Shown here: piece by piece, positions 9,411-33,484 of the stretch | Layout of the letters: each line of letters opens with the position of its first letter | Numbering within the stretch: position 1 is the first letter of the stretch | Source: an uncultured Chloroflexia bacterium | GTDB lineage: Bacteria > Chloroflexota > Limnocylindria > Limnocylindrales > CSP1-4 | Reading direction: 5' to 3' | NCBI GenBank assembly: GCA_963833225.1 | Contig: CAWHXD010000019.1 | Location: 384,001 to 448,000, forward strand | Length of the DNA: 64,000 nucleotides | Position numbers and translations under genes: made by a program | The notes under the pieces: model-generated | Told to the model about the DNA's origin: nothing | What the model saw: only the letters and a program-made list of their open reading frames with translations | Databases searched by the model: none

Positions 9411-9444
9411 CGAGCCTATGGTGCCACGCACCCTCTCCCGGGTC

Positions 9445-10396: not shown

Positions 10397-11738
10397 TCAA
10401 GCGTTCGCGATCTCGTCCCGGAACGCGCGGATGTCCTCCAGGCGGCGCCGGAGCGCGTTGAGGAAGCGGGCGCCTGTCTCGCCGTCCACGATCCGGTGGT
10501 CTGCCGAGAGCGTCAGCTTCATCACCTGCCGGATCCCGATGCCGCCGTCGACGGCCATCGGGGTGGCGATCGCCGAGGACACGGCCAGAATCGCGGCCTC
10601 GCCGGGGTTGATGATCGCGCTGAACTCCTCGACGCCGAACATCCCGAGGTTGCTCACGGTGAACGTGGAGCCGGCCAGGTCGTCGACCGGGATGGAGCCG
10701 TCCCTCGCCGCCGCCGCCAGCGCCGCGACACGATCGTGGAGCGCCGCGATGGTGAGACGGTCCGCGTCACGGACGACGGGCACCACGAGCCCCGACGGGA
10801 CCGAGACCGCCACCCCGAGGTGGACGCGCCGACGGGGATAGACGACCTCGCCGTCGGTGCGCGAGTTGACGTCCGGGAACTCGGCCAGCGTCTGGGCGGT
10901 GGCCGCGAGCACGAAGTCGGTCACGGTGAGGGTGTGGCCCTCTGCCTTGAGCTCCGCGCGGAGCGCGAGCACGCGGGTGACGTCCACCGCCACCGTCACG
11001 GTGAAGTGCGGCGTCGTCTGCCAGCTGTTCGTGAGCCGGGCGGCGATGGTCCGGCGCATCCGGCTCATCGGACGCGGTGCGTCCTCGCCCTCGACCGGGG
11101 GGATGACCGGCTGGGCGACGGGCACCGTCGCGGGGGCTGGCGCTGTGGCTGCGGGTGCCGCCGCGGGCGTGGGTGCCCCGGCCACGGGGACCGGTCGCGC
11201 GGTGGCCGCGGCCCGGACGTCGCGCTCGACGATCCGGCCCTCGGGGCCCGAGCCGGTGACCGAGAGCGGGTCAACGCCCAGCTGCGCGGCAAGACGGCTC
11301 GCGCGCGGGCTGATCTTCACGCGGCCGGGGGCCGCGGGCGCGGGCGAAGGTGCGGCCTCCGGTGCCGCGGCGGCCGCTTCCACCGGGGCCTCTTGTGCCT
11401 GCGGCGAGGCGGGCGTCGCGACCGCGCGCAGCACCGCGTCCGCGACGGGCGCGGTCACGCGGCGTGACCGGCTCGGCCGGCGTCTCGGGGACGGCCTCGC
11501 CTGGCTGGCCGATCCAGCCGCAGACCGCGTTGACCGGTGCCGTCTCACCATCGGCGACGACCCGGGCGAGGAGCACGCCCTCCTCGAATGTCTCGACCTC
11601 CATCGAGCTCTTGTCGGTCTCGATCTCGAACAGGACGTCGCCCTTGTGGACGGGGTCGCCCACCTCCTTGCGCCAGAGGGTGAGCACGCACTCCTCGGTC
11701 ATCTGGCCGGGCTTGGGCATCAGGATCGGGGTGGCCAT
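10397..11738 (-). CDS. Dihydrolipoamide acyltransferase (E2); frameshift ~11460
   Basis: Lipoyl domain EIETDKSSMEV from ATG 11738; E3-binding ISPRASRLA..GSGPEGRI; catalytic TVSNLGMFG and DHRIVDG. Confidence 0.9.
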
Positions 11739-11770
11739 CGGTGGCTCCTTGCTCGCTCGGCGTCCGGCCG

Positions 11771-14074
11771 TCAGACCAGCGCCACGACGGCGGTGACGAT
11801 GTCGCCCGAGTTGGGCAGGAACGCCTTCTCGAGGCGTTCCGCCTGGGGGCTGATCCCCGGTGCGGCGCCGATCCGGCCCACCGGGGCGTCGAGATCGTCG
11901 AACGCCTCGGCCTGGATGCGGGCCACGATCTCGTTCACGAACGAGCCGGTGAGCACCGCCTGTGCGGCGACCACGCAGCGTCCGGTCTTGCGCACGGACG
12001 CGAGGATCGTGTCCATGTCCAGCGGGACGAGGCTGCGGACGTCGATCACCTCGGCCTGGATCCCGCGCGATACCGCGAGCACGTCGGCAGCGGCCAGGGC
12101 GTCCGGGACCGCCGGCCCCCAGGCCACGATCGTGGCATCGCCGCCCTGCCGGACGACGTTCGCCTTGCCGATCGGCGTGGTGTAGTCGCCCTCGGGCACC
12201 ACGCCCTTGGTGGAATACAGGCCCTGGCTCTCCACGAACACCACCGGGTTGTTGGTCTGGATCGCGCTCCGCAGCAGGCCCTTGGCGTCCGCGGCCGTGG
12301 CCGGGTAGACGACCCACAAGCCGGGGATGTGGGTGAACAGCGACTCCAGGCTCTGGCTGTGCTGGCCGCCGTAGCCCTTGCCGGCCCCCACCGAGCACCG
12401 GATCACGATCGGCACCTCGACCTGGCCGCCGGACATGTAGTGCCACTTCGCGGCCTGGTTGGCGATCTGGTCGGACGACATCAGCGCGAAGTCCATGTAC
12501 ATCAGCTCGACCACCGGTCGCAGGCCCACGATGCCCGCCCCGACCGCGGTGCCGCAGATCGTCGCCTCGGAGATCGGCGTGTTGAACACGCGGTCGCGCC
12601 CGAAGGTCTCGATCAGGCCCTTGGTCATCTTGAACGCTCCGCCATAGTCGGCCACGTCCTCGCCGTAGAAGATGACCCGCCGGTCGCGGCGCATCTCCTC
12701 GACCAGCGCGTCGCGGATGGCATCGCGGTACAGGATCCGGCCCTCCGCATCGACCTTGCTCACCGGGGCGTCCGCGAGCAGCGCGGGCTTCGCATCTGCG
12801 GCCGGAACCTCCTCGGACGTGCCGTCGGTGTAGAGCAGGTCAAGCAGGCTGGACGGATCGGGGTCCGTGGCCGCCGCGGCGCGCTTCGCTGCCCGGGCGT
12901 TGCGCTCGGCCGCTCCCGCAAGCACAGCGGCCACCTCGTCGTCGGTGGCAAGCCCGGTTTCGACGAGTTGGCCCTTGAGCTGCTCGATCGGGTCGACGGC
13001 CTTCCACGCGGCCTCCTCGTCGCGCGTCCGGTACTCGTTGCGCGGGTCGGACAGCGAATGGCCGTAGTAGCGGTAGGTGGAGGCCTCGATGAGGACGGGC
13101 CCGTCTCCGGCGCGGCACAGCGCCGCGGCCCGCGTGACGGCGTCGCGGACGGCCAGCACGTCCATGCCGTTGACCACCTCGGCGTGCATGTTGTCCGTCG
13201 CGAACCCGGCCGCGCGGCGCGCCAGGTGCTTGATGCCCATGACCTCGTCGTCGGTCCGGTGGGTCATGCCGTAGTGGTTGTTCTGGATGAAGAAGATGAT
13301 CGGCAGCCCGTACGGCCGATCGCCCGCCAGGTGGTTCGTCCACTGGTGCTGGGCCGCCCAGTTGAGCAATTCCAGGACCACGCCGTTCGCGTACGCGCCG
13401 TCGCCGGCGAAGCAGCACACGACCCCGTCGGTCTGCTCGTAGCGGTGGGCCATCGCCGCGCCTGTCGCGATCGGCACCGAGCCACCGACGATCGCGTTGG
13501 CGCCCAGGTTGCCCGTGGAGAAGTCGCCGATGTGCATGCCGCCCCCGCGGCCGCGGGAGTAGCCCTCGTCCTTGCCGAACAGCTCGGCGATCACCTTGTA
13601 GACGTGCTCCTCGAGGGCCGCGTCCAGGAGCTCGTCGCGGGTGCCGTCCTCGCGGCCCATCCGCGCGCGCAGCTGCTCGAGCGTCATCTGGCGCAGCGCC
13701 GAGAAGCCCTTGGCGATCGCGTCGCCGTGCCCGCGGTGTGACGAGGTGACGTTGTCCGTGATCCGGAGCACGGACGAGGCGCCCACCGCCGACGCCTCCT
13801 GCCCGATGGAGACGTGCGTGGGACCCCGGTAGTCGTAGCCGGGCAGGGGTTCGTAGCCGCCGCCGGAGCGGAGACGGACGATCATCTCCTCCATCTCGCG
13901 GATCGCGAGCATGTCGTCCAGGATGCCCAGCGCCTTCGCCTTGTCCAGCGACCCAGCCTTCACCTCGGAGGCGAGATCGCCCGCGTACTGGAAGCCCGTG
14001 ATGGACCCCAGCTCCTCCTCGAACGGCGCGAAGTCGGGGCGGGTGTCGCTGTGGTAGACGGTCTCGGTGCTCAT
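11771..14074 (-). CDS. Fused E1 alpha+beta ThDP-dependent 2-oxoacid/acetoin dehydrogenase
   Basis: GQEA, HRGHG, GRGGGMH, GDGA...NN, YRYYGHSLSD; beta part YGEDV, NTPISE, GGQHSQ, DVRSLVPLD. Start MSTETV at 14074. Confidence 0.9.
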   Translation of the reverse strand: MSTETVYHSDTRPDFAPFEEELGSITGFQYAGDLASEVKAGSLDKAKALGILDDMLAIREMEEMIVRLRSGGGYEPLPGYDYRGPTHVSIGQEASAVGASSVLRITDNVTSSHRGHGDAIAKGFSALRQMTLEQLRARMGREDGTRDELLDAALEEHVYKVIAELFGKDEGYSRGRGGGMHIGDFSTGNLGANAIVGGSVPIATGAAMAHRYEQTDGVVCCFAGDGAYANGVVLELLNWAAQHQWTNHLAGDRPYGLPIIFFIQNNHYGMTHRTDDEVMGIKHLARRAAGFATDNMHAEVVNGMDVLAVRDAVTRAAALCRAGDGPVLIEASTYRYYGHSLSDPRNEYRTRDEEAAWKAVDPIEQLKGQLVETGLATDDEVAAVLAGAAERNARAAKRAAAATDPDPSSLLDLLYTDGTSEEVPAADAKPALLADAPVSKVDAEGRILYRDAIRDALVEEMRRDRRVIFYGEDVADYGGAFKMTKGLIETFGRDRVFNTPISEATICGTAVGAGIVGLRPVVELMYMDFALMSSDQIANQAAKWHYMSGGQVEVPIVIRCSVGAGKGYGGQHSQSLESLFTHIPGLWVVYPATAADAKGLLRSAIQTNNPVVFVESQGLYSTKGVVPEGDYTTPIGKANVVRQGGDATIVAWGPAVPDALAAADVLAVSRGIQAEVIDVRSLVPLDMDTILASVRKTGRCVVAAQAVLTGSFVNEIVARIQAEAFDDLDAPVGRIGAAPGISPQAERLEKAFLPNSGDIVTAVVALV

Positions 14075-14102
14075 CGGGTCTCCTGGGTTTCGGCGGATCG
14101 GG

Positions 14103-15071
14103 TCAGGGTTGCGGGGTGGCGACCAGGAGGCGGGCCGCCTCCTCGTCGGTGACCAGGCGGTGGACGAGGCCGCTGCGGAGGGCGGCCCGGATGGCAGGCA
14201 CCTTGTCGGCCCCGCCGGCGATGGCGATGACATCCGGCACCCGCCGGAACTGGTCCTCGCGGACGGCGATGCACCGCTCCGGCAGGCCGGCGGCGCGGAC
14301 CTCGCGGCCCTCCGCGTCGAGGACGATCGAAGCGATGTCGGCAACGCCACCCGCCTCGTCAACGGCACGCGCGTCGGTCTCGGTGAGCGCCGCGCGGATC
14401 GTGGATGCACCCGGGCCCCATGCGCCGATGCCGACGACCGCACGCGTCAGTCGATCGAACTGGCTCAGCGTCGCCGAGGCCATCGGGTCGCTCGCGAGGG
14501 CGTCCGCCATCTCGGCGCTGCCCACCAGGAGCGGCACGTGGAGCGGGAAGACCGGGCCTGTCGCGCGTTCGGCCAGACGGCGCACGAGCTCGAGCGAGTT
14601 CAGCTCAAGCTGCAGCGTGGGGACGCTGCCCACGAGCTGCACGACGGTGCAGGCGGGGAGCCGGGGGAGCTGCTCGACCAGGGCGTGCAGCGTCCTGCCC
14701 CACGAGATGCCGAGCACGTCGGCGGCCTCGAGGACATCGCCCAGGACGGCGGCGGCCGCCCGCCCGAGCCCCGCGAGGCGCATCGCCTCCGTCCCGGTCG
14801 AGGAGCGGACCACCACGGCCCCGCGGATCCGGTAGCGGTCCCGGAGCGCGTCGGCGAGCTCCAGATCCAGCTCCGGAAGCGGCGCGATGTCAATCCGGAC
14901 GATGCCGTCCCGACGGGCCCGGTCCAGCATCCGGGCAACCCTGAAGCGCGACACGCCCAGCTCGGCGGCGATCTCGCTCTTGCTGGCGCCGTCGAGGTAG
15001 TAGCGGCGGCAGGCCAGCACCGTGCTCAGGAGGTGCAGCCGGGATGCGGACGCGTCGCGATCGAGGACCAC
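14103..15071 (-). CDS. SorC/DeoR-family sugar-binding transcriptional regulator
   Basis: YYLDGASKSEIAAELGVSRFRVARML HTH; ISWGRT; IAGGADKV..LVTDE. Likely GTG start at 15071. Confidence 0.9.
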   Translation of the reverse strand: MVLDRDASASRLHLLSTVLACRRYYLDGASKSEIAAELGVSRFRVARMLDRARRDGIVRIDIAPLPELDLELADALRDRYRIRGAVVVRSSTGTEAMRLAGLGRAAAAVLGDVLEAADVLGISWGRTLHALVEQLPRLPACTVVQLVGSVPTLQLELNSLELVRRLAERATGPVFPLHVPLLVGSAEMADALASDPMASATLSQFDRLTRAVVGIGAWGPGASTIRAALTETDARAVDEAGGVADIASIVLDAEGREVRAAGLPERCIAVREDQFRRVPDVIAIAGGADKVPAIRAALRSGLVHRLVTDEEAARLLVATPQP

Positions 15072-15083
15072 GCGAGTAGCGTA

Positions 15084-15126
15084 TGACCTGATCATTCGAG
15101 CGTCAACCGCTCAAATGATCAGGTCA
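15084..15126. promoter_or_regulatory. 19-bp inverted repeat, probable SorC-family operator
   Basis: TGACCTGATCATTCGAGCG-TCAAC-CGCTCAAATGATCAGGTCA (18/19 match), AT-richer than background, immediately upstream of the regulator/E1/E2 operon. Confidence 0.7.
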
Positions 15127-15517
15127 GGCAAGGAGCTGGCCGCCGATCAGCCGGCGGCAAGCGACTGGCCGCCCCCCCAAGCCTGCGGGCGGTTGAACGG
15201 TGCGGTCCCGGCACCGGTCGGCCGTCCGGCGCCCGGATCAGGCCCTGGCCCGTCGCCGCACCGCACAGATGGACCGCCCGGCGGCAGGAGGCGAACGTGG
15301 CTGCACCGTAGGACCGCTGAGCTGCAGATGCGCGACGGTCATCCGATCCTGTCAGCACCGGATGGCATGGGGACACCCAGCGGCGCAGTCGTCGCAGGGT
15401 GCGACCGTCGGGTCACGGAGCGGCCGGGCACATCGTCGGCCACTCCCATCCGCGCGGCCGGACTCCAATCGCCGTGCCGTCGTTGGCCCCGCCACCTCGA
15501 GGCGGCAGGGCATCGGG

Positions 15518-16342: not shown

Positions 16343-16352
16343 CGAGTCCTCC

Positions 16353-17570
16353 CTACCAACTCGCGGCCGTGCCGCCCACCCGCGCCGCGTACTTCGCCTC
16401 CTCCTCACCCGACGCGAGGTAGGCGCGGTAGGGGTCGGGCGCGAGCCCGCGCGCGACCCGCAGCTCGGCGAGGAGCGGCCGGACGTCGGTGTTGAACGCA
16501 TCCCACAGGCAGCCGTTCGCCTCCAGCACGTCGCCCGCCGCCTGCGCCGCCACCAGCCGCTCGCGGTCCACCAGCAGCACCTTGGCGATCGTCTCCTGGA
16601 GGTTCATGACGCTCCGGATCATGGCCGGCACCTTGGGCTCGATGTTGTGGCACTGGTCGAGCATGTAGGTGGTCTGGTTGGCGGTCTCCTGAGCGATCGG
16701 ATCGGCGTCGTCGCGCATCGCGTTGACCAGCTCGTGGGCGATCCGGAAGAGCTGGTATGGGTCGATGGAGCCGACCATGAGATCGTCGTCGCCGTACTTC
16801 TTGTCGTTGAGGTCGAAGGCGGCCAGCTTCCCCTCGGCGAGGAGCAGGGCCACGATCTGCTCGATGTTGACGCCCATCGCGTGGTGTCCGGTGTCGACGC
16901 ACACGCCGGCGCGATCGCCCAGCTGGCGCACGACGTTGAGGCTCTGTCCCCAGTCCTGGACGTCGGTGCTGTACAGCGCGGGCTCGTAGAGCTTGTACTC
17001 GAGGTACAGGCGGGCGTTCGCGGGCAGCGCGGCGTAGACCTCCCGCAGCCCGGCGACCAGCCGTCGGTGCCGTCCGCGCAGGTCGTCCTGGCCCGGGTAG
17101 TTGGTGCCGTCGCCCAGCCAGACCTTGACCGCCTGGGCATCGGTCGCGGCGGCGATCTCGCAGCAGCCCACGATGGCCGCGACGGCCTTGGCGCGGACAC
17201 GGGCGTCGGGATGACAGATCGACCCGAGCTTGTAGTCCTCGTCTTGGAAGGTGTTGCTGTTGATGCCGCCGAGGACGAGCCCGCGCCCCTTCGTGTAGGC
17301 CGCGAGCCCCGCCCAGTCATCGACCATGTCCCAGGGGATGTGGAGGCTCACGCTGCCCGCGATCCCCGTGTAGCGGTTGACGGTCGCCGCGTCGTCGATC
17401 TTCTCGAACACCGTGCGCGGCACCCCCTGCTGGGGGAACACGCGGAACCGGGTCCCGGTATTGACGAAGCCCCACGACGGAATCTCGATGTTGACGCCGT
17501 TCATGGCCCAGTCGATGCGCTCGATGGCCGGGGCGGACGCGGGCTTGGCGATGGCGGCGATGGTGGCCAT
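16353..17570 (-). CDS. rhaI: L-rhamnose isomerase (RhaI type)
   Basis: IPSWGFVNTGTRF, LHIPWD, INSNTFQD..YKLGS, DGTNYPGQ, EYKLYEP, DTGHH, DDDL, MLDQCHNIEPK. Confidence 0.95.
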   Translation of the reverse strand: MATIAAIAKPASAPAIERIDWAMNGVNIEIPSWGFVNTGTRFRVFPQQGVPRTVFEKIDDAATVNRYTGIAGSVSLHIPWDMVDDWAGLAAYTKGRGLVLGGINSNTFQDEDYKLGSICHPDARVRAKAVAAIVGCCEIAAATDAQAVKVWLGDGTNYPGQDDLRGRHRRLVAGLREVYAALPANARLYLEYKLYEPALYSTDVQDWGQSLNVVRQLGDRAGVCVDTGHHAMGVNIEQIVALLLAEGKLAAFDLNDKKYGDDDLMVGSIDPYQLFRIAHELVNAMRDDADPIAQETANQTTYMLDQCHNIEPKVPAMIRSVMNLQETIAKVLLVDRERLVAAQAAGDVLEANGCLWDAFNTDVRPLLAELRVARGLAPDPYRAYLASGEEEAKYAARVGGTAASW

Positions 17571-17587
17571 GGCGGTCTCCTTGGGGC

Positions 17588-19081
17588 TCAGGCGGAGGTG
17601 GCGGGCCGGCGGGCGCAGATCGCGGCGAACCGCGCGCGCGCCTCGGTCCAGTCACCGGACGGTTCATAGGTGGTGATCGGGAAGGAGCGGGCCGCCAGCT
17701 CGCGTGCCTCGGCGACCGAGGCGAGCTCGCCCGACGCGATGGCCTGGACGGCGAGGTTGCCAATGGCCGTTGCCTCGACGGGGCCGGCTCGCACCGGGAG
17801 CCCGGTGGCGCCGGCGGTCAGGCGGTTGAGGAGGCGGTTCCTGCAGCCACCGCCCACGATGTGCACGGCATCGATCGGCTGGTCTGACGCGGCGGCAAGC
17901 TGGTCGATCGCCGCGGCATAGCGCAGCGCCAGGCTCTCCAGCAGGACGCGCATCAGCGTGCCGGTGTCGCGCGGCACGGGCTGATCGGTCTCGGCGCAGA
18001 ACTCGCGGACGCGAGCCGGGAGGTCGCCCGGGCGCAGGAAGCGCTCGTCGTCGGGATCGATGAACGCGGTGAACGCCGGCGCGGCCTCGGCGAGGCCGGC
18101 CAGCTTCTCGTAGGTCGGTGCCTCGCGATCCGGCCACAGGGCGCGCCGGCTCTCCTGGACCAGCCACAGGCCAACCACGTTGCGCAGCAGCCGGATCGTG
18201 CCGACCACGCCACCCTCGTTGGTCAGGTTCGCGGCGAGGGACACGTCGGAGATCACCGGCTCCGGCATCTCCAACCCGATCAGCGACCAGGTGCCCGAGG
18301 AGAGGAAGGCGGTGGATCGGGATCCGATCGGGGTGCCGACAACGGCCGAGGCCGTGTCGTGCGAACCGGGGAGCACCACCCGCGTGAGGGCGAGCCCGGA
18401 CGCGCTCGCGAGCCCGTCCATCAGGCCGCCCACGTCCGTGCCGGGCGGAACGATCTCCGGCAACAGCCGGGTCGGGATGCCAAGGCGCTCCAGCATGGGT
18501 CGAGCCCAGTCGCGGGCCCGGGCGTCGAGCGCCTGGCTGGTGGATGCGAGCGTGTACTCGGACACGCTGGCGCCCGACAGGAAGTGGGCGAACAGGTCGG
18601 CCATCATCAGCAGCCGGTCCGCGTGCCGCAGGAGCGGGTCGTCCGCGCTCGCCATGGACAGCAGCTGGTACACGGTGTTGATGGCCATGAACTGGATGCC
18701 CGTGACGGCGTAGATCTCGTCCCGCGGGACCAGCCCGAACGCCCGCTCAAGCATGCCGTCGGTCCGTGCGTCACGGTAGTGGACGGGGTTCGCGAGCAGT
18801 CGCCCCCGCTCGTCGAGGAGCGCGAAGTCCACGCCCCAGGTGTCGACGGCGACGGAGGCCACATCGCCTGCCGCGCCGGCCTTGCGCAGGCCGGTCCCGA
18901 TGTCGCCGAACAGGCGCAGGGCGTCCCAGTGGAGCGTCCCCGCCACGGCCACGGGCACGTTCGGGAACCGGTGGATGTCCTCGATCGCAAGCCGCTCGCC
19001 GTCGAAGGTGCCGACGAGGACTCGACCGCTTTCGGCACCCAGGTCGACGGCCGCGAGCCGGACGTTGGCGCGCTCAGTCAA
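17588..19081 (-). CDS. rhaB: Rhamnulokinase
   Basis: AVDLGAESGR, DTWGVDF, HYRD, SHDTASA, SSGTWSLIG, GGG, GPVEATAIGN. Confidence 0.95.
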   Translation of the reverse strand: MTERANVRLAAVDLGAESGRVLVGTFDGERLAIEDIHRFPNVPVAVAGTLHWDALRLFGDIGTGLRKAGAAGDVASVAVDTWGVDFALLDERGRLLANPVHYRDARTDGMLERAFGLVPRDEIYAVTGIQFMAINTVYQLLSMASADDPLLRHADRLLMMADLFAHFLSGASVSEYTLASTSQALDARARDWARPMLERLGIPTRLLPEIVPPGTDVGGLMDGLASASGLALTRVVLPGSHDTASAVVGTPIGSRSTAFLSSGTWSLIGLEMPEPVISDVSLAANLTNEGGVVGTIRLLRNVVGLWLVQESRRALWPDREAPTYEKLAGLAEAAPAFTAFIDPDDERFLRPGDLPARVREFCAETDQPVPRDTGTLMRVLLESLALRYAAAIDQLAAASDQPIDAVHIVGGGCRNRLLNRLTAGATGLPVRAGPVEATAIGNLAVQAIASGELASVAEARELAARSFPITTYEPSGDWTEARARFAAICARRPATSA

Positions 19082-19388
19082 GGCGGAACACCTCCTCCAG
19101 GCGCCGGTGGAACCCCGTGGCCGGGTCGGTGCACGGGTCGATGAGGCGGGCCATGTCCGCCTGCCAGAGGTCGTTGACCGGCTGCTCGGCCATGAACGCC
19201 CGGAACCGGTCGAAGTCCTCGACGTCGAACACGCCGATCAGTGTCCCGTCGAGCAGGTAGATGGAGTAGTTGCTGACCCCGCCGTCCCGGAGGGCCCCGA
19301 GCATCTCGGGCCAGACGTCGGCGTGGCGCCGGCGGTACTCGTCCTCGGCGCCGGGCAGCAGGCGCATGGTGAAGGCGATGCGTTCCAT
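19074..19388 (-). CDS. rhaM: L-rhamnose mutarotase
   Basis: EYRRRHADVWPE, NYSIY, WQ..M, LEEVFRLD. Confidence 0.92.
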   Translation of the reverse strand: MERIAFTMRLLPGAEDEYRRRHADVWPEMLGALRDGGVSNYSIYLLDGTLIGVFDVEDFDRFRAFMAEQPVNDLWQADMARLIDPCTDPATGFHRRLEEVFRLD

Positions 19389-19413
19389 CGATGGTGGCTC
19401 CCGGGATGGGAAA

Positions 19414-19444
19414 CGGGCCCCGGCGGAGGATCCGCCGGGGCCCG
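19414..19444 (-). terminator. GC-rich hairpin after the substrate-binding gene (terminator or mRNA stabiliser)
   Basis: CGGGCCCCGGCGGA-GGA-TCCGCCGGGGCCCG is a perfect 14-bp stem, followed by TTT on the minus strand. Confidence 0.6.
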
Positions 19445-19454
19445 GCTGGAGGAG

Positions 19455-20563
19455 CTAGAAGTCGAACTGGTCGACGTTCGTCGCGTCGAACCGGAAAGCC
19501 GGCCCGAGGATGACGACGCTGTCCGCACCGATCGTGTACGGCTGGCCGTTGTTGAGACTCGGCACGGTGAAGGTCTCGCCCTCAGCGCCCGTGATCTCGC
19601 CCTTGACCAGCTTGTCGGCGATGACGTAGGAGAGGTAGCCGAGGTCCGGGAACACTCCACAGGCCGAAGACCGGGGAGGTGCCGTCCTTGACGAACGGCC
19701 TTCATGTCGTTGGGGAAGCCGAGGCCGGTGACCTTGACGGAGTCCGACTTGCCGGCCTGCGAGACGACCTGTGCCGCCGCGAGGATGCCGACCGTGGTCG
19801 GGGCGACGATGACCTTGAGGTTCGGGTACTTGGTCAGCAGAGTCTGCGCCTGCTGGGTGCTCTTGGTCGCGTCGTCATCGCCGTAGACGGTGTCGACGAG
19901 CTTGAGCCCCGCGTACTTGGTCGTCCTTGAGGGTCGTCTTCATGAGGTCGATCCAGGCGTTCTGGTTGGTGGCCGTGGCGGCCGCCGACAGGATCGCGAT
20001 CTCGCCGGTGCAATTCGGCGCGAGCTCGCACGCCCAGTCGGCGAGGTTGACGCCGACGCCGCTGAAGTCAACCTGGTTGACGAACACGTTGTAGGCGCCG
20101 ACCGCGGGGCTGGAGTCAAAGCCGACAACCTTGATGCCCGCTGCCATGGCCTCCTTGAGCGCCGGGGCGACCTCGTCCTTGCCGTCAGCGGAGATGATGA
20201 TCGCGCTGACGTTCTGGGTGGTGAGGTCCGTGATGAACGGGATCTGGAGGTCGGCCTTCGCCTCGTTGGGCCCGACCTGGATGACGGTCCCGCCGAGCTC
20301 GCCGGCAGCCTTGTCGACGCCCGTCTTCGCGGCGGCGAAGTACTGGTTGACGATGTCCTTGGGCAGGTAGCCGACGGTCATGGACCGGGCGCCATGGACG
20401 CGGGCGCCATGGACCGGGCGCCATGGACTCGGGCGCCATGGACTCGGGCGCCTGGGCTGGCGGGGGCGGCGGACGGGCTGGCGGCGCCGTTGCCGCAGGC
20501 CGACAGCACGATGACGGCCGTGCCTGCGATGGCGAGCCACCGTCCGGCTGAATGGAGCTTCAA
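19455..20563 (-). CDS. rhaS: Rhamnose ABC transporter substrate-binding lipoprotein; several frameshifts
   Basis: TTG start with AGGAGG RBS; lipobox VLSAC; LPKDIVNQYF, SAAATATNQNAWI, YGDDD, PTTVG, LGPAFRFDATNVDQFDF. Split over several frames. Confidence 0.85.
20378..20452 (-). repeat. Five tandem ~15-bp units (GGCGCCCGAGTCCAT) encoding an SMAPE/A linker
   Basis: Read directly from sequence; two units are 14 bp and break the frame. Confidence 0.85.
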
Positions 20564-20601
20564 GGGAGTTCCTCCTCTATGTCGATTACTGGCGCGCGTT
20601 C

Positions 20602-21638
20602 TCACCCGGGAATCGCGTCGGCCGGCTGGTGCCGGCGCCTCTGGACGCGTTCATGGCCGTTCTGGCCTTGGTGAGCGAAGGTTGGGATGAGGACGGACAG
20701 GATCAGCAGCAACCCCAGGGCGATGCTCTGGACCTCGACCGACACGCTGGCGAGCCGGAGGGCGTTCTGCATCACGGCGATCGTGAGCACGGCCAGGACC
20801 GTGCCCGGGATCGTGCCCGAACCTCCGAAGATATTGGCGCCGCCCGAGCAGCACGACCGTCGACGGCCGTGATCGTCATCCCCTCGCCGGCATCGGCGCG
20901 GGCGCTCGAGAGACGGGATGTCAGCACGACGCCCGCGAAGGCGGCGATGGTGCCCGTGAGGACGAACAGGCTGGTGCGGAGACGGGTCACCCGGACGCCC
21001 GAGTAGCGAGCCGTCCCCGCGTTCCGGCCAATGGCGTAGATCTGGCGCCCGATCCACGTCCGGTGGAGCACGATGCCGAGCGCCAGCGCGAGGCCGAGGA
21101 AGATGACGAACGACCATGGGATCACCGTGCCGGGAACGTCGCCGAACCCGAGCTGGGTGAAGGCCTCCGGGAAGTTGCTGACACCGCGCGGCCCAAGGAC
21201 GATGAGCGCCATCCCGCGGAACAGGGCCAGCGTGCCGAGCGTGACCACGAGCGACGGCAGGCCGCCGCGGCCGACGAGGACGCCGTTGAGGAAGCCGCCG
21301 GCGGCGCCGATGAGCGAGCACGAGCGGGATGGCGATCTCGAGGGGCACGCCGGCCGCCCACAGGAAGCCAAGGGTTGCGCTGGCGAGCCCGGCCATCGAC
21401 TCCACCGACAGGTCGATCTCGCCGAGGATGATGACCAGGGTCAGCGGCAGGGCCATGATCGCCACCTCCATGAGGGCGGCGACCAGGTTCGAGAAGTTCT
21501 TGGCGGTCAGGAAGTACGGGGAGAGGGCGTTGCCCATCACACCAGCCCCAGCAGGGCGACCAGGAGCAGCGTCTCCCATCGGGCCAGCCCCCGAAGCACG
21601 GAGCCGATCACCGGCCGGGACCGCGCCGGCGCCGTCAT
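20602..21638 (-). CDS. rhaQ: Rhamnose ABC transporter permease; frameshifted
   Basis: WETLLL, IILGEIDLSV, PSLVVTLGTLALFRG, GRQIYAIG, GGANIFGGSG across frames. Confidence 0.85.
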
Positions 21639-22654
21639 CGGGCGCCACTCCGGGTGTTCGCGCGCTGGACGCCACGACGGATGAGCTGGTCGCTGCTGAT
21701 CGCCAGCAGGATGACAACGCCGTAGATCGCCTGGAGCCAGAACTGCGACAGGCCGACGAGGATCAGCGCATTCGCGATGAACCCGAGGAACAGGGCGCCG
21801 ATCGCCGCGCCGGCGAGCGTGCCCGAGCCGCCGAGGATGTTCACCCCGCCGACCACGACCGCGGCGATGACCGCGAGGACCACGCCCGTTGCCGCTGTGC
21901 CGTTGATGGTGCCGAACTCGATCACCCACATCACGCCCGCCAGGCCCGCGAGGATGCCGCACACGGCATAGGCGACGAAGATGACCCGGCGGGACGGGAT
22001 GCCCAGGATCGCGGCCGCATCAGGGTTGCTGCCGACGGCGTAGACCTGGCGGCCGAAGCGGGTCGAGCGCAGGAGCACGGAGCCCACGACGACCACCCCG
22101 ATCGTGACGCAGGACGAACACGGGGATGCCGAGGAAGTCGGTGCGGGCGATGTGGGCGAACCCCTCGGGAAGGCAGGCGAGCGGGACCTGGTCGGGACCG
22201 GCGATCACGTAGTCGATCCCGCGGAAGATGCTGAGCGTTCCCAGGGTGGCCACGATCGCGCGGCACCTTGAGCATCGCGATGATGAACCCGTTGACCATC
22301 CCGAGCACAAGGCCGATGGCGAGCCCCAGCACGAGCGCACCGAGCCGGGTCGACGGTCTCCAGCTCGAGCGAGCGGGCGACGGCGTAGGCAACCAGCCCG
22401 ATGATCGCCTCGACCGACAGGTCGATGCCCCGGGTGATGATGACGAGCGCCTCGCCGACAGCGGCGATCGCCGTGATCGACGCGAGGACCGCGACCTGGC
22501 TGAAGTTGTCGACGGACAGGAACTGCGGGGCCATGGTCGTGACCAGGCCGCCGAGCACGAACATGAGCGCGACCAGGGTCAGCTCGCGCTGGCGTCCGAT
22601 CACCAGCAGCCAGTGGCCGCGGCCCCGCCGCACCGGGAGCGTCGCTTCAGCCAT
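21635..22654 (-). CDS. rhaP: Rhamnose ABC transporter permease; frameshifted
   Basis: VIITRGIDLSV, IVATLGTLSIFRG, GRQVYAVGSNPDAA, VVGGVNILGGSG across frames. Confidence 0.85.
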
Positions 22655-24144
22655 GGGATCGCCTGGGTGCCGGTGGCCGCGAACATCACGCGCTCCTGGG
22701 TGGCCTCATCCCTCGAGATCTCGGCCGTGACCCGGCCCTCGTGGAGGACGATGATCCGGTCGGACATCGCCAGCACCTCGGGCAGATCGCTCGAGATCAG
22801 GATGATCGCCAGGCCCTTCGCGGCCAGCTCGGCGATCAACCGGTGCACCTCGACCTTGGCTCCGATGTCGATGCCCCGCGTCGGCTCGTCGAGGATCAGG
22901 ACCCGCGGGCCGGACGCCAGCCACTTGGCCAGCACGACCTTCTGCTGGTTGCCGCCCGACAGGGCGCCCACCTGTTGGTCGACGCCGGTCATCCGTACGT
23001 CGAACTGCTCGGTGTGCTCGGCTGCCACGGCTCGCTCCTTCGCCTCGTGCACCAGGAGCCTGGGGAACAGGCGGGGCAGGATGGGCAGCGTGACGTTGTG
23101 GGCAATGGAGAAGTCGAGGATCAGGCCCTGCTGGTGGCGGTCCTCGGGCAGATAGGCGATGCCCGCGCTCATCGCCCCGGACGGCGCGCCGAAGTCCACG
23201 GGTGTTCCGTCCAGCCGCACGTCTCCGCTGTCCCGCCGGTCGATCCCGAACAGCACCCGAGCGATCTCGGACCGGCCGGCCCCGACGAGGCCCGCGAGCC
23301 CGACGATCTCCCCGGCCCGCACCGAGAACGAGACATCGCGGAACACACCGACCCGCGTCAGGTTGGAGACCTCGAGCAGCACATCGCCGATCGGGTTCTC
23401 GACCTTTGGAAACAGGGACACGGTCCGGCCGACCATGTGGCGGATGAGGTCGGCGGTCGTGAGCTCCGATGTCGGCGCGGTGACGACATGACGGCCATCA
23501 CGGAAGACCGTCGCCCGGTCACTCAGGTCGAACACCTCGTCCAGGCGGTGGCTCACGAACAGGATGGCCACGCCCCGGTCCCGCAGCCGGCGGACGATGG
23601 TGAACAGCCGCTCGACTTCGTGGGCCGAGAGCGAGGCCGTGGGTTCATCAAGGATGAGCACGTTGGCCTCGACCGACAGGGCCTTGGCGATCTCGATCAG
23701 CTGCTGGTCGGCCATCGACAGGCCACGAACCGGTGCGCCGACGTTGACCTGCACGTCCAGCTCTTCAAACAGCGTCTCCGCCGACCGCCGCATGCCGCGC
23801 CAGTCGATCAACCCGAGGTGGCCAGACGGCGCGTGACCGATGAACACGTTCTCGGCGACCGTGAGGTCCGGGAACAGGCGTGGCTCCTGGTGGACGACCG
23901 CGATCCCCAGCGCGCGCGACCGGGATGGCCCGGCGATCTGGGTTGGCACGCCGTCCAGCAGGATCGTGCCGCTGTCCGGCTGGTGGACCCCGGCCAGGAT
24001 CTTGACAAGGGTGCTCTTGCCGGCACCGTTCTCGCCGACGAGCGCGTGCACCTCGCCCGCCAGGATGTCGAGCGAGACATCGCTCAGCGCCGCGGTCGCC
24101 CCAAAGCGCTTGGAGATCCCGGACAGGGCGACGCGCGGCGTCAT
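22600..24144 (-). CDS. rhaT: Sugar ABC transporter ATP-binding protein (two NBDs)
   Basis: GENGAGKST, ILDEPTASL, LSGGNQQKV, LDEPTRGIDIGAK. The true stop is probably near 22647. Confidence 0.93.
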   Translation of the reverse strand: MTPRVALSGISKRFGATAALSDVSLDILAGEVHALVGENGAGKSTLVKILAGVHQPDSGTILLDGVPTQIAGPSRSRALGIAVVHQEPRLFPDLTVAENVFIGHAPSGHLGLIDWRGMRRSAETLFEELDVQVNVGAPVRGLSMADQQLIEIAKALSVEANVLILDEPTASLSAHEVERLFTIVRRLRDRGVAILFVSHRLDEVFDLSDRATVFRDGRHVVTAPTSELTTADLIRHMVGRTVSLFPKVENPIGDVLLEVSNLTRVGVFRDVSFSVRAGEIVGLAGLVGAGRSEIARVLFGIDRRDSGDVRLDGTPVDFGAPSGAMSAGIAYLPEDRHQQGLILDFSIAHNVTLPILPRLFPRLLVHEAKERAVAAEHTEQFDVRMTGVDQQVGALSGGNQQKVVLAKWLASGPRVLILDEPTRGIDIGAKVEVHRLIAELAAKGLAIILISSDLPEVLAMSDRIIVLHEGRVTAEISRDEATQERVMFAATGTQAIPWLKRRSRCGGAAATGCW

Positions 24145-24959: not shown

Positions 24960-25178
24960 AGCCACAAGGTTCGACTCCAAGCGAAACGGGGAAGGTCGAT
25001 TTCGAAACTTCGGTTGGTTGCGAATAGGAGCACTTTGCGACGGCGAGCGGGCTCTGTCAAGCGCAATCGCGCCAGAGATGCCTGGCCTGGGTTGAGTTGG
25101 CGCCGTCGGTCGCGTACGATGCGGTATCACAACCAATCGGAATGAGTCGTAACTACTCGGAGAGCAGGCGAACCGCAG

Positions 25179-28438: not shown

Positions 28439-28461
28439 CCGTGACCCACAGGAGCGCCCAC

Positions 28462-30156
28462 GTGACCGATCTCCCTCTCACCGAGCACGCCATCCAGTTC
28501 ACCGGCCCGGGCGAGGTGGTGCACAACGTGGCCAAGCCCGTGCACCGTCCAGGTCCCCACCAGCTCGTGGTGCAGGTGGAGGCGGTCGGCATCTGCTTCT
28601 CCGACACGAAGCTGCTCAAGGCGTTCACCGCGCACCCGCGCAAGAGCGAGGTCCTGAACGGCCTGGCGCCAGAGATCCTGGCCCAGATCCCGAGCTACAC
28701 GCCCGGCGACCTCCCGCTTGTTCCAGGCCACGAGTGTGCCGGGCGGATCGTCGCGATCGGGGATGCGGTGACGTACCACCGGGTGGGGGAGCGGGTCCTG
28801 GTCCAGACCGACTACCGGCACCTGCCCACGGCCGGCGCGAACGCCGCGTTTGGCTACAACTTCGAGGGCGGGCTCCAGGAGTACGCGCTCCTCGACGAGC
28901 GGATGATCCTCGACCCGGACACTGGCGAGCGGTTCCTCATCCCGGTCGGAGATGATCCCTCCGGATCGGCCGTCGCCCTGCTCGAGCCCTGGGCCTGCGT
29001 GGAGCGGTCCTACGCCTCGGAGGAGCGCGGCACCCTCACCCCGGGCGGTCGCCTGCTGGTCGTGGCCGAGCCGGGCCGGGTGATCCGGGGCCTGGACACC
29101 CTCGTGGCGGCTTCGCGACCGGGCACGGTGTCCGCCATCCTCGCGGATACCGGACAGGCGGGCGCGCTGGAGGCCGCGCTTGGTGGCGAGCTCCGCGTCC
29201 GCCGGGTCGTCGATCTCGCCGCGCTCGCCGGCGAGCGCTTCGACGACATCATCTGCTTCGGTGCCGATGCCGGCCGGATCGAGACCCTGCAGGACCTGAT
29301 GGCACCCCGGGCCACCATCGACGTCGTCCTGGATGGCGCGGTGCCGGACCGGCCGGTCGCGGTCGACGTTGGGCGCATCCACTACGACCTGCTGCGCTGG
29401 GTGGGCACGACCGGCGACAGCGCCGCCGATGGGTATGCGTGGGTCCCGGCCACGGGCGAGCTGCGAGCGGGCGATCGGGTTGCGATCATCGGCGCGGCGG
29501 GGCCGATGGGCTTCATGCACGTGATCCGCGCCCTGACGATCGGGCAGCCCGACGTGTCGGTCGATGCCATCGACATCGATGACGCCAGGCTCGCCCATCT
29601 CGCCGAGGTCGCCGCGCCGCTGGCCGCGGCCAGCGGGTTGAAGGCCGCGTTCCTCAACAGCCGCACCAGCCCGCCGGCCGCGGGCGGGTACGACTACGTG
29701 GGCGTGATGGTCCCCGCGCCCGCGCTCGTCCTCGAGGCCCTCGCGGCGGCGGCGCCCGGGGCGATCGTCAACCTGTTCGCGGGATTTGCCGTGGGGACGC
29801 TGGCGAGCGTCGATCTCGGGGATCTCCTCGGCCGGAAGATCTTCGTGTTCGGCACCAGCGGGTCCGTGATCCGCGACATGGAGGCGGTTCTTGCCCGCCT
29901 CGAAGCCGGCCGCCTGGACACCAACGTGTCGGTTGACGCCGTGTCCGGGATGGAGGGTGTCCGCGACGCGCTCGCTGCCGTCGAGGCGAGGTCGTCGGGC
30001 GGCAAGATCGTGGTCTACCCCCAGCTCCATGACCTGGGCATGGTCCGGCTGGGCCAGCTTTCGGACCGGCTGCCCCAGGTCGCCGCGAAGCTCCGGGACG
30101 GCCGCTGGACACGCGAGGCCGAGGAGGCGCTGCTCGCCTCGGCGCCCCGGTCATGA
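28462..30156 (+). CDS. Zn-dependent MDR dehydrogenase, L-sorbose-1-phosphate reductase (SorE)-like, with internal insertion
   Basis: GICFSD, GHECAGRIV, EPWACV, IIGAAGPMG, GTSGS..DM; about 560 aa. Confidence 0.75.
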   Translation: MTDLPLTEHAIQFTGPGEVVHNVAKPVHRPGPHQLVVQVEAVGICFSDTKLLKAFTAHPRKSEVLNGLAPEILAQIPSYTPGDLPLVPGHECAGRIVAIGDAVTYHRVGERVLVQTDYRHLPTAGANAAFGYNFEGGLQEYALLDERMILDPDTGERFLIPVGDDPSGSAVALLEPWACVERSYASEERGTLTPGGRLLVVAEPGRVIRGLDTLVAASRPGTVSAILADTGQAGALEAALGGELRVRRVVDLAALAGERFDDIICFGADAGRIETLQDLMAPRATIDVVLDGAVPDRPVAVDVGRIHYDLLRWVGTTGDSAADGYAWVPATGELRAGDRVAIIGAAGPMGFMHVIRALTIGQPDVSVDAIDIDDARLAHLAEVAAPLAAASGLKAAFLNSRTSPPAAGGYDYVGVMVPAPALVLEALAAAAPGAIVNLFAGFAVGTLASVDLGDLLGRKIFVFGTSGSVIRDMEAVLARLEAGRLDTNVSVDAVSGMEGVRDALAAVEARSSGGKIVVYPQLHDLGMVRLGQLSDRLPQVAAKLRDGRWTREAEEALLASAPRS

Positions 30157-31163
30157 AGGTTGCGAGGCTGCACGGGCCGGGTGACATCCGTCTCGCGTCC
30201 GAGCCGGAGCCGCAGCCCGGGCCCGGCGAGGCCCTCGTCCGGGTGACGGCCGTCGGAATCTGCGGCTCGGACCTGCACTGGTATACCGAGAGCAGCATCG
30301 GCGGAGCCGAGCTCACTCGCCCCCTGGTCCTGGGTCACGAGGCGGCCGGCGTCATCGCGTCCGGGCCGAGGGCCGGCACCCGCGTCGCGATCGATCCCAG
30401 CCTGCCGTGCGGGGCGTGCGAAACCTGTGCCCGGGGGCTGGGCCACCTCTGCCCCCACGTCCGGTTCCTGGGCCACAGCGACACCGACGGCGCGCTGCGC
30501 GAGCAGATCGCCTGGCCCGAGGCGCACCTGGTCCCCATCCCCGACGCGATCGACGACGTTGCCGCGGCCGTCCTCGAGCCGCTCGGGGTCGCCATCCACG
30601 CCATGCGGCTCGCCGGCCTGCGCCCGGGAGGCACCATCGCCATCACCGGTGCCGGACCCATCGGCCAGCTCCTGATCCAGCTGGCGTTCGCCGCGGGCGC
30701 GTCCGCGGTCGCGGCTACCGACATCCTTGCCCATCGTGTCGAGGCGGCCCGCGCCGCCGGGGCGGTGGCAGAGGTCGTGGACGGCGGTGCCGAGCGGGAG
30801 CGCCTCCTGGCAGCCCTTGGTGGCCGGCCCGTGGACACGGCGATCGAGATCGCGGGCGTGGATGACGCGATCGCCACTGCTGCTGCCCTCGTGCGCCCCG
30901 GCGGCACGGTGGTCATTGCCGGCATCCCCACGGGCAACGAGAGCGTCGTCCCGGCCTCGGTGCTGCGTCGCAAGGGCATCGACCTCCGGTTCTCTCGCCG
31001 GATGAACCGGGTCTACCCGGAAGCGATCGCGCTGGTGACCTCAGGACGCGTTCGCCCCGGCGACGTGGTCACCGCGACCTACTCGCTCGACGATGCCGAC
31101 GCCGCGTTCCGGACCGCCGCGCGCCGCGAGGGCGGCAAGGTCGTGGTGCTGCCCAACGCGTAG
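30153..31163 (+). CDS. Zn-dependent polyol (iditol/sorbitol-type) dehydrogenase
   Basis: GICGSDLH, GHE, CGACETC..C, GAGPIG. Confidence 0.9.
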   Translation: MKVARLHGPGDIRLASEPEPQPGPGEALVRVTAVGICGSDLHWYTESSIGGAELTRPLVLGHEAAGVIASGPRAGTRVAIDPSLPCGACETCARGLGHLCPHVRFLGHSDTDGALREQIAWPEAHLVPIPDAIDDVAAAVLEPLGVAIHAMRLAGLRPGGTIAITGAGPIGQLLIQLAFAAGASAVAATDILAHRVEAARAAGAVAEVVDGGAERERLLAALGGRPVDTAIEIAGVDDAIATAAALVRPGGTVVIAGIPTGNESVVPASVLRRKGIDLRFSRRMNRVYPEAIALVTSGRVRPGDVVTATYSLDDADAAFRTAARREGGKVVVLPNA

Positions 31164-31770: not shown

Positions 31771-31844
31771 GTGTCCGGGCCGGCTGCGTGACGGGCGCAG
31801 AATCGTCGTGCACAGACCTTGAGGGGTGCGGTACCGTTCGGTGG

Positions 31845-31858
31845 TGTTACCGGTAACC
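31845..31858. promoter_or_regulatory. LacI-type operator
   Basis: Palindrome GTTACCGGTAAC about 75 bp upstream of the LacI gene. Confidence 0.65.
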
Positions 31859-31932
31859 GACGCCGCTGGCCCGCTTCCCCTGCCCTCGATCTCCCTGCGG
31901 CCCTCCCGATCCGAACCCAGACCTCAGATCCC

Positions 31933-32979: not shown

Positions 32980-33012
32980 CCGTGCTCGAACCCATGACGT
33001 AAAGGAGGCCCG

Positions 33013-33432: not shown

Positions 33433-33484
33433 GGCAGGGCAGGTTTCGTTCACACCGCGTCCCAGGAACAAGAGGACCACGACC

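Follow-up and report, generated by a model that had tools for sequence, protein, structure and literature searches.

A rhamnose operon flanked by two halves of a conserved catabolic module in Chloroflexota, and its possible role in an undescribed route of L-fucose and L-rhamnose breakdown

L-Fucose and L-rhamnose rank among the main sugars in the glycans of plants, algae and mucins, and the textbook routes for their breakdown proceed via toxic lactaldehyde. A stretch of 64,000 nt from an uncultured Chloroflexia bacterium (assembly GCA_963833225.1, contig CAWHXD010000019.1, positions 384,001 to 448,000; hereafter the window, meaning this whole stretch) raises the question of what a lipoamide-dependent dehydrogenase complex might have to do with such sugars. 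On one side of its rhamnose operon lie genes for a SorC-type regulator, a fused thiamine diphosphate (ThDP)-dependent E1 and a dihydrolipoamide acyltransferase (E2); on the other side are genes for a PHP-fold protein, a fusion of a class II aldolase with a short-chain dehydrogenase/reductase (SDR), an unusually long zinc-dependent medium-chain dehydrogenase/reductase (MDR) and a polyol-type zinc alcohol dehydrogenase (Zn-ADH; Table 1). Comparison with other genomes revealed that one conserved catabolic module, made up of the MDR, the SDR, the PHP protein and the fused-E1/E2 complex, is split into two halves that lie to either side of the rhamnose operon, and we consider it settled that the window genes represent a single functional module linked to fucose/rhamnose catabolism. 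As to its function, we favor, at a rough probability of 0.4, a widespread and undescribed route for L-fucose and L-rhamnose in which the carbonyl would be moved to C5 and a dedicated complex would release acetyl-CoA, the MDR being built into this complex in some lineages via an anchor that resembles an E3-binding protein (E3BP).

That the PHP, aldolase-SDR and MDR genes belong together with the fused E1/E2, as proposed by an earlier, sequence-only reading of this DNA, was upheld far outside the source genome and in varied gene orders. A profile from an alignment of 50 long-MDR members, searched against one genome per GTDB species, revealed at least 589 relatives in species genomes, and the family comprised 244 representative clusters at E ≤ 1e-30. 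Carriers come from at least six phyla and were found among Chloroflexota, Actinomycetota (Propionibacteriaceae, Arachnia, Tessaracoccus, Schaalia, Actinomyces, Scrofimicrobium and Acidimicrobiales), Planctomycetota, Verrucomicrobiota, Kiritimatiellia, Acidobacteriota, Sumerlaeota and Anaeromyxobacter. Gene content was counted in the best 80 of the at least 589 long-MDR loci, to a maximum of 10 kb either way; 39 of them had complete flanks. Neighbors were called by tblastn with the window proteins and by clustering of 977 open reading frames (ORFs), followed by Pfam assignment of cluster representatives. Across all 80 loci, the SDR was present in 68, the PHP protein in 57, the aldolase part in 46, E2 in 45, the dihydrolipoamide dehydrogenase E3 in 41 and E1 with both halves in 40; a DeoR or SorC regulator was seen in 45. 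For the 39 full-flank loci, the corresponding numbers were 35 (PHP), 33 (SDR), 28 (aldolase part), 27 (E2), 26 (E1) and 22 (E3). The commonest layout outside Chloroflexota has E1 and a DeoR regulator on one strand and E2, E3, PHP, (aldolase-)SDR and MDR on the other, while a SorC regulator contiguous with E1-E2 was also encountered in three loci of Chloroflexi metagenome-assembled genomes (MAGs; L045, L047 and L051). Five module genomes of 2.6–8.3 Mb hold just one or two E1-beta homologues each, and chance adjacency of E1 with the MDR genes is therefore out of the question. Some companions are restricted in distribution: the Zn-ADH accompanies the module in Chloroflexota alone (9 of the 80 loci), and a Mannitol_dh_C-type dehydrogenase of about 420 amino acids (aa; cluster 13) occurs in nine loci, directly after the long MDR in six of Verrucomicrobiota/Planctomycetota (L063, L073, L091, L096, L104 and L115) and at its side or a short way off in L079, L070 and L078. 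Four loci contain lipoyl synthase genes.

The same linkage is evident at closer range. Of 24 further genomes in the window's genus, 11 have a full-length orthologue of the fused E1 (74–94% identity) and two more a partial or fragmented one; none was detected in 16 small genomes of the same order. We inspected contexts of 32 kb in eight genus relatives. SorC, E1 and E2 are contiguous in all of them, and in seven the operon encoding PHP, aldolase-SDR, MDR and Zn-ADH lies no more than 6 kb away. In relatives G014 and G008, the SorC-E1-E2 operon diverges directly from the MDR operon and the rha genes do not intervene; in G014 and G006, they follow downstream of the MDR operon on the same strand. 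Stand-alone RhaD is present in just four of the eight. Because gene orders differ among these relatives, it can be stated that the two module halves stay joined while the rha operon moves. In the G014 context (6592–10323, loci L025/L026), E1 and E2 share one stop-free frame of 1244 codons, which suggests read-through or fusion.

The trees of E1-beta sequences assign the module E1 to a dedicated clade. In the first tree, a branch with a Shimodaira–Hasegawa-like approximate likelihood ratio test (SH-aLRT) value of 99 separated the 49 module rows, without exception, from seven paralogues that lie outside the module. Of the module rows, 12 belong to the window's genus and 37 to the remaining long-MDR loci, including two from Chloroflexi MAGs; the paralogues stem from the same genomes, three of them from the genome of the window itself. 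A second tree, for which the two longest-branch paralogues were dropped and four plasmid-borne references added, reproduced this split. The E1, which the sequence-only reading had likened to acetoin dehydrogenase, was thus not grouped with other E1 copies of the same genomes in either tree, both of which derive from short searches with few, unnamed outgroups and do not include named AcoAB, PdhAB or Bkd references. A long stem (1.5–2.0) lies beneath the non-Chloroflexota E1 clade. In all 40 E1-carrying loci, E1 is an alpha-beta fusion of about 820 aa. All five module genomes checked also encode an AceE-type E1 (three of five) and/or pyruvate:ferredoxin oxidoreductase (PFOR; four of five), which makes the module complex an additional one. 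In the window E2, the catalytic motif reads DHRIVDG, and the 14 readable module E2s all retain DH(R/Q)xxDG. Of the curated models, TIGR03182 gave 259 bits for E1 alpha (cut-off 394) and TIGR01349 255 bits for E2 (cut-off 445); the E1 alpha part scored 144 bits against the structure of the alpha subunit of human pyruvate dehydrogenase (PDH). Solved structures were also tried as a means to identify the E1, and did not discriminate: the beta part scored 257 bits against PDH and 255 bits against branched-chain E1 beta.

Acetoin breakdown offers a biochemical parallel. The AcoABCL acetoin dehydrogenase system converts a ketol CH3-CO-CHOH-R to acetyl-CoA and an aldehyde. Like the module, it combines a dedicated E1 alpha/beta, E2 and E3 with a secondary-alcohol dehydrogenase, and the cleavage that we propose below would be of the same reaction type. 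The module differs in having E1 alpha and beta fused, in its SorC/DeoR regulators and in its sugar kinase/isomerase neighbors; furthermore, the E3 gene, part of the cluster in AcoABCL, stands beside the module in just over half of the loci counted above, and the window cluster is not among them. A second, unfused kind of sugar-linked lipoamide complex is seen on Firmicutes plasmids, those of Clostridioides difficile (NZ_CP149671.1, L156) and Brevibacillus laterosporus (NZ_CP011075.1, L157), where a SorC regulator, E1 alpha, E1 beta, E2 and LpdA are encoded beside genes for IIA, IIB and IIC of a phosphotransferase system (PTS). Their E1 beta is 50–51% identical to that of the window but falls outside the module clade, the two E1 subunits are separate proteins, and annotated genes for a long MDR, SDR or PHP protein are absent from the vicinity. 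In the search for named plasmid E1 references, the matches bore generic product names only.

Nothing points more strongly to action of the MDR and the complex on consecutive intermediates than a set of fusion proteins. Ten unusually long MDR relatives were scanned, and a further search among longer proteins added one more, P0272. Three proteins (P0125, P0126 and P0272) consist of an MDR followed by an E3_binding domain and a 2-oxoacid_dh core; Pfam detected no lipoyl domain in them, and the catalytic E2 motif reads DQA, DRG or DRT, i.e. the His is replaced. P0272, encoded on a 5-kb metagenome contig (L117), is a continuous frame of 1096 codons between a PHP gene and the start of E1. The E3BP of eukaryotic PDH (protein X) is a structural core subunit, and the three fusions share with it an E3-binding domain and an E2-like core devoid of the catalytic His. 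They are unlike E3BP in that a whole Zn-MDR takes the place of the N-terminal lipoyl domain, a replacement of which we know of no described case. By their domain order and motifs, the MDR-core fusions look like E3BP-type structural core subunits that would carry the MDR into the complex. Other combinations are P0164, an MDR-SDR fusion, and P0188, a class II aldolase-MDR fusion; four of the ten contain MDR domains only. Two further MDR fusions were noted, P0207 and P0165, one with a GDPD domain and one with a sulfatase fragment.

These observations bear on the simplest explanation, that a normal acetoin or pyruvate dehydrogenase merely happens to be encoded beside sugar genes. The E1, E2 and E3 sequences are indeed unremarkable family members, and the closest plasmid-borne E1s carry generic names. 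Nonetheless, co-localization in at least six phyla and in several gene orders, a dedicated E1 clade and the MDR-E2-core fusion proteins make this explanation very unlikely, the least probable of those considered here.

The sequence-only reading had likened the MDR and the SDR to the SorE/SorD pair, a comparison that gained substance from relatives of both enzymes. In the L-sorbose pathway, SorE is the sorbose-1-phosphate reductase (a Zn-MDR) and SorD/SrlD the sorbitol-6-phosphate dehydrogenase (an SDR). In 50 long MDRs, C44, H89, E90, E174 and G343/G346/G349 (GxxGxxG) are invariant, constituting a polyol-dehydrogenase-type zinc site and a Rossmann motif, and an inserted domain of about 200 residues separates the two Pfam halves. 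The NCBIfam scan of the window proteins yielded no match of a curated SorE model to the long MDR, whereas JGI names some of its relatives L-sorbose 1-phosphate reductase. A 32%-identical relative on a Deinococcus plasmid is encoded between an SDR and an FGGY kinase, and six Chloroflexota genomes (L150–L155) have 31–33%-identical relatives between a PTS (EIIC, EIIA and an HPr-EI fusion) and a PfkB kinase, in LacI-controlled operons of the same layout (six of six by ORF sizes, with Pfam checked on two). By genomic context, the long MDR looks SorE-like, being encoded downstream of systems that make ketose 1-phosphates. For the SDR, curated models point in the same direction: NF009050 (sorbitol-6-phosphate dehydrogenase) was the best model for all five module SDRs (204–237 bits, all below the cut-off of 307), and the window SDR half scored 237 bits with it versus 175 bits with the RhaW part of TIGR02632; the latter part reached 141–175 bits in the four module SDRs that list TIGR02632. 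Conversely, NF009050 was not listed at 1e-40 for any of three canonical RhaEW proteins. Thus the SDR is nearer to sorbitol-6-phosphate dehydrogenase than to RhaW. The module resembles the L-sorbose pathway in that adjacent genes encode an MDR and an SDR downstream of a kinase or PTS. The differences are that the module MDR has about 560 aa including the insert, that the SDR remains below the NF009050 cut-off, and that the module's neighbors serve 6-deoxyhexoses, the product of which is barred from the glycolytic entry open to fructose 6-phosphate.

The fold of the long MDR was also considered as a substrate clue and set aside: its AlphaFold2 (AF2) model (pLDDT 96.3) matched the generic MDR fold only, at 13–18% identity, with a 2,3-butanediol dehydrogenase (6ie0) on top. 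Since 2,3-butanediol dehydrogenase oxidizes a vicinal diol to a ketol, this top match could be taken to mean that the tethered MDR oxidizes lactaldehyde at C2 to toxic methylglyoxal, the hydrate of which would be cleaved by E1 to acetyl-lipoamide and formate, and tethering of the MDR to the E2 core would suit the channeling of such a toxic intermediate. We nevertheless see this as highly improbable: we know of no precedent for the E1 reaction, the universally present SDR would be left without a role, the match is generic as just said, and the sugar-phosphate contexts of SDR and MDR speak against it.

Sugar phosphates as substrates leave room for compounds other than deoxyhexose derivatives, for example a deoxy or rare ketose derived from polysaccharides, with the rha/fuc adjacency reflecting shared regulation or a downstream product. 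A rhamnose/fucose isomerase lies within 10 kb in only 18 of the 80 loci and an FGGY kinase in 17, the module stands alone at many Planctomycetota and Verrucomicrobiota loci, the Mannitol_dh_C-type dehydrogenase is added in nine, and the distant MDR relatives serve PTS sugars. On the other hand, any sugar genes that do adjoin the module are of the rha or fuc kind; this holds in at least three phyla, and frequently the two sets share one strand (L048, L057, L080, L111, L116 and the window). The methyl-ketol logic of a ThDP/lipoamide complex fits deoxy sugars best. We regard a different phosphorylated sugar or polyol as quite unlikely to be the substrate. An example of adjacency is Tessaracoccus antarcticus, where the module is followed at once by genes for an ABC transporter, FucU, FucI (995 bits) and an FGGY kinase, in no stated order. 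In L111 (11818–13722; a Phycisphaerae MAG), a 635-aa protein without NCBIfam match is encoded between the long MDR and an FGGY kinase/FucI/FucP set.

How the module could handle the two deoxyhexoses may be envisaged as follows. The long MDR would reduce the kinase product, L-fuculose 1-phosphate or L-rhamnulose 1-phosphate, at C2 in the way that SorE reduces sorbose 1-phosphate; the resulting 6-deoxyhexitol 1-phosphate would be oxidized at C5 by the SDR, as SrlD/SorD do with sorbitol 6-phosphate, giving a 1-deoxy-ketohexose 6-phosphate; and the methyl-ketol end of the latter would be cleaved by E1/E2/E3 in an acetoin-dehydrogenase-like manner to acetyl-CoA and a tetrose 4-phosphate. The roles of the two dehydrogenases might be swapped. 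Taken by itself, this sequence from ketose 1-phosphate via polyol phosphate and 1-deoxy-ketose 6-phosphate to acetyl-CoA plus tetrose 4-phosphate stands, in our estimation, just short of an even chance. Textbook configurations imply that both sugars would end up in the same tetrose, because rhamnulose and fuculose differ at C4 only, which is the future aldehyde carbon; with a SorE-like facial selectivity of the reduction, the product would be D-threose 4-phosphate. We count in favor of this carbonyl shift that fucose-linked modules lack the aldolase part (0 of 4 loci). A transaldolase gene was found after E2 in two Chloroflexi loci (L045 and L047) and after Zn-ADH in L043, which lends weak support to a tetrose-phosphate route. 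In the literature, leaving aside the supplementary tables on RhaEW, we found no description of the module, no long MDR joined to a core of the E2 type and no lipoamide complex assigned to the breakdown of deoxyhexoses; the only relevant paper was that on RhaEW (PMC3870299), and a paper on Planctopirus treats the microcompartment route.

RhaEW of Chloroflexus aurantiacus and Bacillus subtilis is bifunctional and was shown to convert rhamnulose 1-phosphate to dihydroxyacetone phosphate (DHAP) and L-lactate (PMC3870299). The aldolase-SDR fusion of the module, the only one of its kind in the source genome, is like RhaEW in its architecture, in its rhaI/rhaB/rhaM neighborhood and in the preserved metal-binding His residues, a kinship that the sequence-only reading had brought up solely as something that could refute it. 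It is unlike RhaEW in that it misses the TIGR02632 cut-off (325 bits, or 318 bits genome-wide, versus 567.75; three canonical Chloroflexota RhaEW proteins score 1018–1188 bits), in the SorD-like leaning of its SDR half, and in the acid-base motif, which is SVE in the module aldolase and SID in two canonical RhaEW. Moreover, it always occurs with the long MDR and usually with the lipoamide complex, neither of which is mentioned in the main part of the RhaEW paper (PMC3870299). The module can dispense with the aldolase part: Arachnia, Tessaracoccus, Schaalia, Actinomyces and several Planctomycetota have an SDR on its own. Among loci outside Chloroflexota, this part accompanied a rhamnose isomerase in six of seven loci and a fucose isomerase in none of four, small numbers that come from related genomes. 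If the carbonyl is indeed shifted to C5, the aldolase-fold part could be a rhamnose-specific accessory that cleaves rhamnulose 1-phosphate in parallel or interconverts the C4 epimers rhamnulose 1-phosphate and fuculose 1-phosphate.

An aldolase-free module genome was looked for without success: a class II aldolase match turned up in five of five Actinomycetales and in five of five further genomes, and such matches were resolved, to AraD plus a RhaE-type gene, for Tessaracoccus and Schaalia only. The class II aldolase-family genes of Tessaracoccus antarcticus are only AraD in araBDA (370 bits) and the RhaE-type gene in the rha cluster, with no FucA-type gene. A stand-alone RhaE-type gene is located inside an rhaI-rhaB cluster elsewhere in the Tessaracoccus, Schaalia and Arachnia genomes. 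In Arachnia propionica (L148, 5689–8451), rhamnulokinase and the RhaE-type aldolase share a single frame of 921 codons.

The main rival to the carbonyl shift builds on the aldolase part of the module. This part, RhaD or FucA would split the ketose 1-phosphate into DHAP and L-lactaldehyde, the SDR would oxidize the latter to L-lactate and the MDR the lactate to pyruvate, an uphill step pulled by a dedicated PDH that yields acetyl-CoA, and tethering of the MDR would serve this coupling. The aldolase-SDR architecture like that of the proven RhaEW (PMC3870299), the conserved aldolase residues, and the location of the RhaE-type aldolase within rhaI-rhaB clusters of three Actinomycetota with their modules elsewhere are consistent with such a three-carbon route, as is the occurrence of the module with either rha or fuc genes, lactaldehyde being their common product. 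Likewise, the beta part of the window E1 scored 362 bits with NF006667, a PDH E1 beta subfamily model with a cut-off of 321. Canonical RhaEW is present in 0 of 6 Chloroflexota with a close long MDR (G087 included) versus 79 of 301 overall; this may be counted for the three-carbon route as well, and as a case of mutual exclusion between RhaEW and the module it was dismissed for the small number of carriers. A good deal speaks against lactate as the intermediate, however: the SDR is closer to sorbitol-6-phosphate dehydrogenase than to RhaW, the PTS/PfkB and FGGY contexts of the MDR relatives indicate sugar phosphates, the polyol-type dehydrogenases (Zn-ADH and the Mannitol_dh_C type) as well as the PHP protein would be left without a role, fucose-linked modules lack the aldolase and Tessaracoccus a FucA-type gene, and AceE or PFOR is already there in all five genomes checked. 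In addition, we know of no Zn-MDR that is a lactate dehydrogenase. On balance, the three-carbon route appears unlikely, yet it is the explanation to be taken most seriously beside the one we prefer.

Several points weigh against the carbonyl shift and its acetyl-CoA-releasing cleavage. To our knowledge, there is no enzyme activity known for any part of the module, and we know of no E1 that cleaves a phosphorylated six-carbon ketol. Since the tetrose phosphate would differ from the standard D-erythrose 4-phosphate, the scheme calls for one more step, and it gives the PHP protein nothing to do. An E1 beta that passes a PDH subfamily cut-off leaves pyruvate a possible substrate. No E3 gene was found in the window or in any of the eight genus contexts, and the window's own E2 is frameshifted. 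Among the full-flank loci, 12 of 39 have no E1/E2 within 10 kb, although three of these (L037, L038 and L049) are window-like in that an intervening rha operon pushes E1 beyond 10 kb. Finally, there is the aldolase: the Glu of SVE, the HxH motif and the third His are kept in every printed row (31–34 of 38), the domain is probably active by this criterion, and it is homologous to a proven rhamnulose-1-phosphate aldolase (PMC3870299). All five genomes with aldolase-less modules have a class II aldolase-family gene elsewhere, and because the window contains a stand-alone RhaD, lactaldehyde is probably still made. The proposal of the sequence-only reading that the pathway bypasses lactaldehyde was its weakest claim and has become doubtful, considering the conserved aldolase domain, RhaD in the genome and an aldehyde dehydrogenase gene just outside the window. 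The absence of a FucO- or AldA-type enzyme, which that reading had noted, did hold for the window, with neither an Aldedh nor an iron-containing alcohol dehydrogenase (Fe-ADH) gene found inside the 64 kb. The nearest Aldedh gene begins 351 nt past the right end (G000:C19:448351-449724; Pfam Aldedh 510 bits) and is a candidate lactaldehyde dehydrogenase for the adjoining non-phosphorylative deoxy-sugar island; four further Aldedh genes lie elsewhere in the source genome, and its sole Fe-ADH is located about 285 kb away.

Should the preferred reading of a shift to C5 followed by cleavage be true, the module complex would be the first of the 2-oxoacid-dehydrogenase type to act on a sugar phosphate, which would extend the chemistry of lipoamide complexes, and the MDR-core fusions would be a natural instance of an E2 core with an additional enzyme attached to it. 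Among the carriers, known from at least 589 species genomes, are Tessaracoccus, Arachnia, Schaalia, Scrofimicrobium and Blastopirellula, all in culture, along with abundant soil Chloroflexota, Planctomycetota and Verrucomicrobiota. If these handle fucose and rhamnose differently, carbon-flow models and genome annotation are incomplete for them; in the cultured carriers, the fucose/rhamnose hypothesis is directly testable.

The genes concerned are compiled in Table 1. The window DNA has about 71% G+C, and genes were chosen by third-position G+C and named with Pfam and NCBIfam. Every gene named by the sequence-only reading was recovered at its place in these scans.

Table 1. Genes of the module, the rhamnose operon and their immediate surroundings in the window.
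Feature	Coordinates	Strand	Basis and remarks
DAGK_cat/YegS-like kinase	9445..10386	-	Pfam DAGK_cat 70 bits; NCBIfam lipid-kinase models all below cut-off
E2 dihydrolipoamide acyltransferase	10397..11738	-	lipoyl, E3_binding and 2-oxoacid_dh; E3_binding/2-oxoacid_dh ORF 10397-11551
Fused E1 alpha-beta, ThDP-dependent, 767 aa	11771..14074	-	E1_dh, Transket_pyr, Transketolase_C
SorC/DeoR(Bsu)/LsrR-type sugar-phosphate-sensing regulator	14103..15095	-	Pfam Sugar-bind 195 bits; heads E1-E2 operon
Stand-alone RhaD-like class II aldolase	15518..~16330	-	NF002963 137 bits vs cut-off 170
rhaI	16353..17570	-	TIGR02635 538.5 bits vs cut-off 531
rhaB, FGGY kinase	17588..19081	-	Pfam FGGY_N/C
rhaM, mutarotase	19074..19388	-	Pfam rhaM
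Rhamnose-type ABC transporter	19458..24144	-	Peripla_BP_4, BPD_transp_2, ABC_tran; binding protein and 2 permeases 19458-22705, ATPase 22603-24144
DeoR-family regulator	24144..~24930	-	HTH_DeoR and DeoRC
PHP-fold phosphoesterase-like protein, 408 aa	25179..26405	+	Pfam PHP (PF02811) 20.1 bits, below cut-off of 26.4
RhaE-like class II aldolase fused to sorbitol-6-phosphate-dehydrogenase-like SDR, 678 aa	26402..28438	+	Aldolase_II and adh_short
Long Zn-MDR, ~564 aa	28462..30156	+	ADH_N and ADH_zinc_N_2, Pfam halves ~250 residues apart
Zn-ADH, polyol-dehydrogenase type	30153..31163	+	ADH_N and ADH_zinc_N; idonate-5-dehydrogenase and Tdh models below cut-off
LacI, FucU, FucI	31819-35290	+	downstream of Zn-ADH

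A gap of 420 nt separates the RhaD-like gene from that of the SorC-type regulator. The reading frames of the window are not all intact. In the E2 gene, one frameshift in the linker at about 11450–11560 puts the lipoyl domain (from 11738) out of frame with the E3-binding/catalytic part; in each of the six genus relatives read, one uninterrupted ORF encodes the three domains of E2, and because of this we take the break to be a likely assembly error. About ten frame changes accumulate within 3.3 kb (19382–22705) in the genes for the transporter's binding protein and both permeases, side by side with intact genes for the ABC ATPase, rhaB, rhaI and E1. The source assembly has 20 contigs and is 86% complete, and two other genus assemblies (G008 and G024) are likewise rich in frame breaks. 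Most of the frame breaks in the window are likely assembly errors; for the transporter, decay of this copy could be the alternative.

Directly downstream of E2 in the window, as well as in three of the eight genus relatives (G014, G024 and G006), lies the DAGK/YegS-like kinase gene, whose membership in the module is uncertain. As to the PHP protein, its AF2 model (pLDDT 92.6) found its best Foldseek matches among TrpH/YciV-type phosphoesterases (3e0f, E 6.8e-12; 2yb1; 9etk; E values of about 1e-11), with a TM score of 0.74 on the target 3e0f. Across 44 sequences, N19, H21, H23, E79, H181, D266, E275 and N326 are invariant, and judging from the predicted structure this is a genuine PHP fold despite the Pfam score below cut-off.

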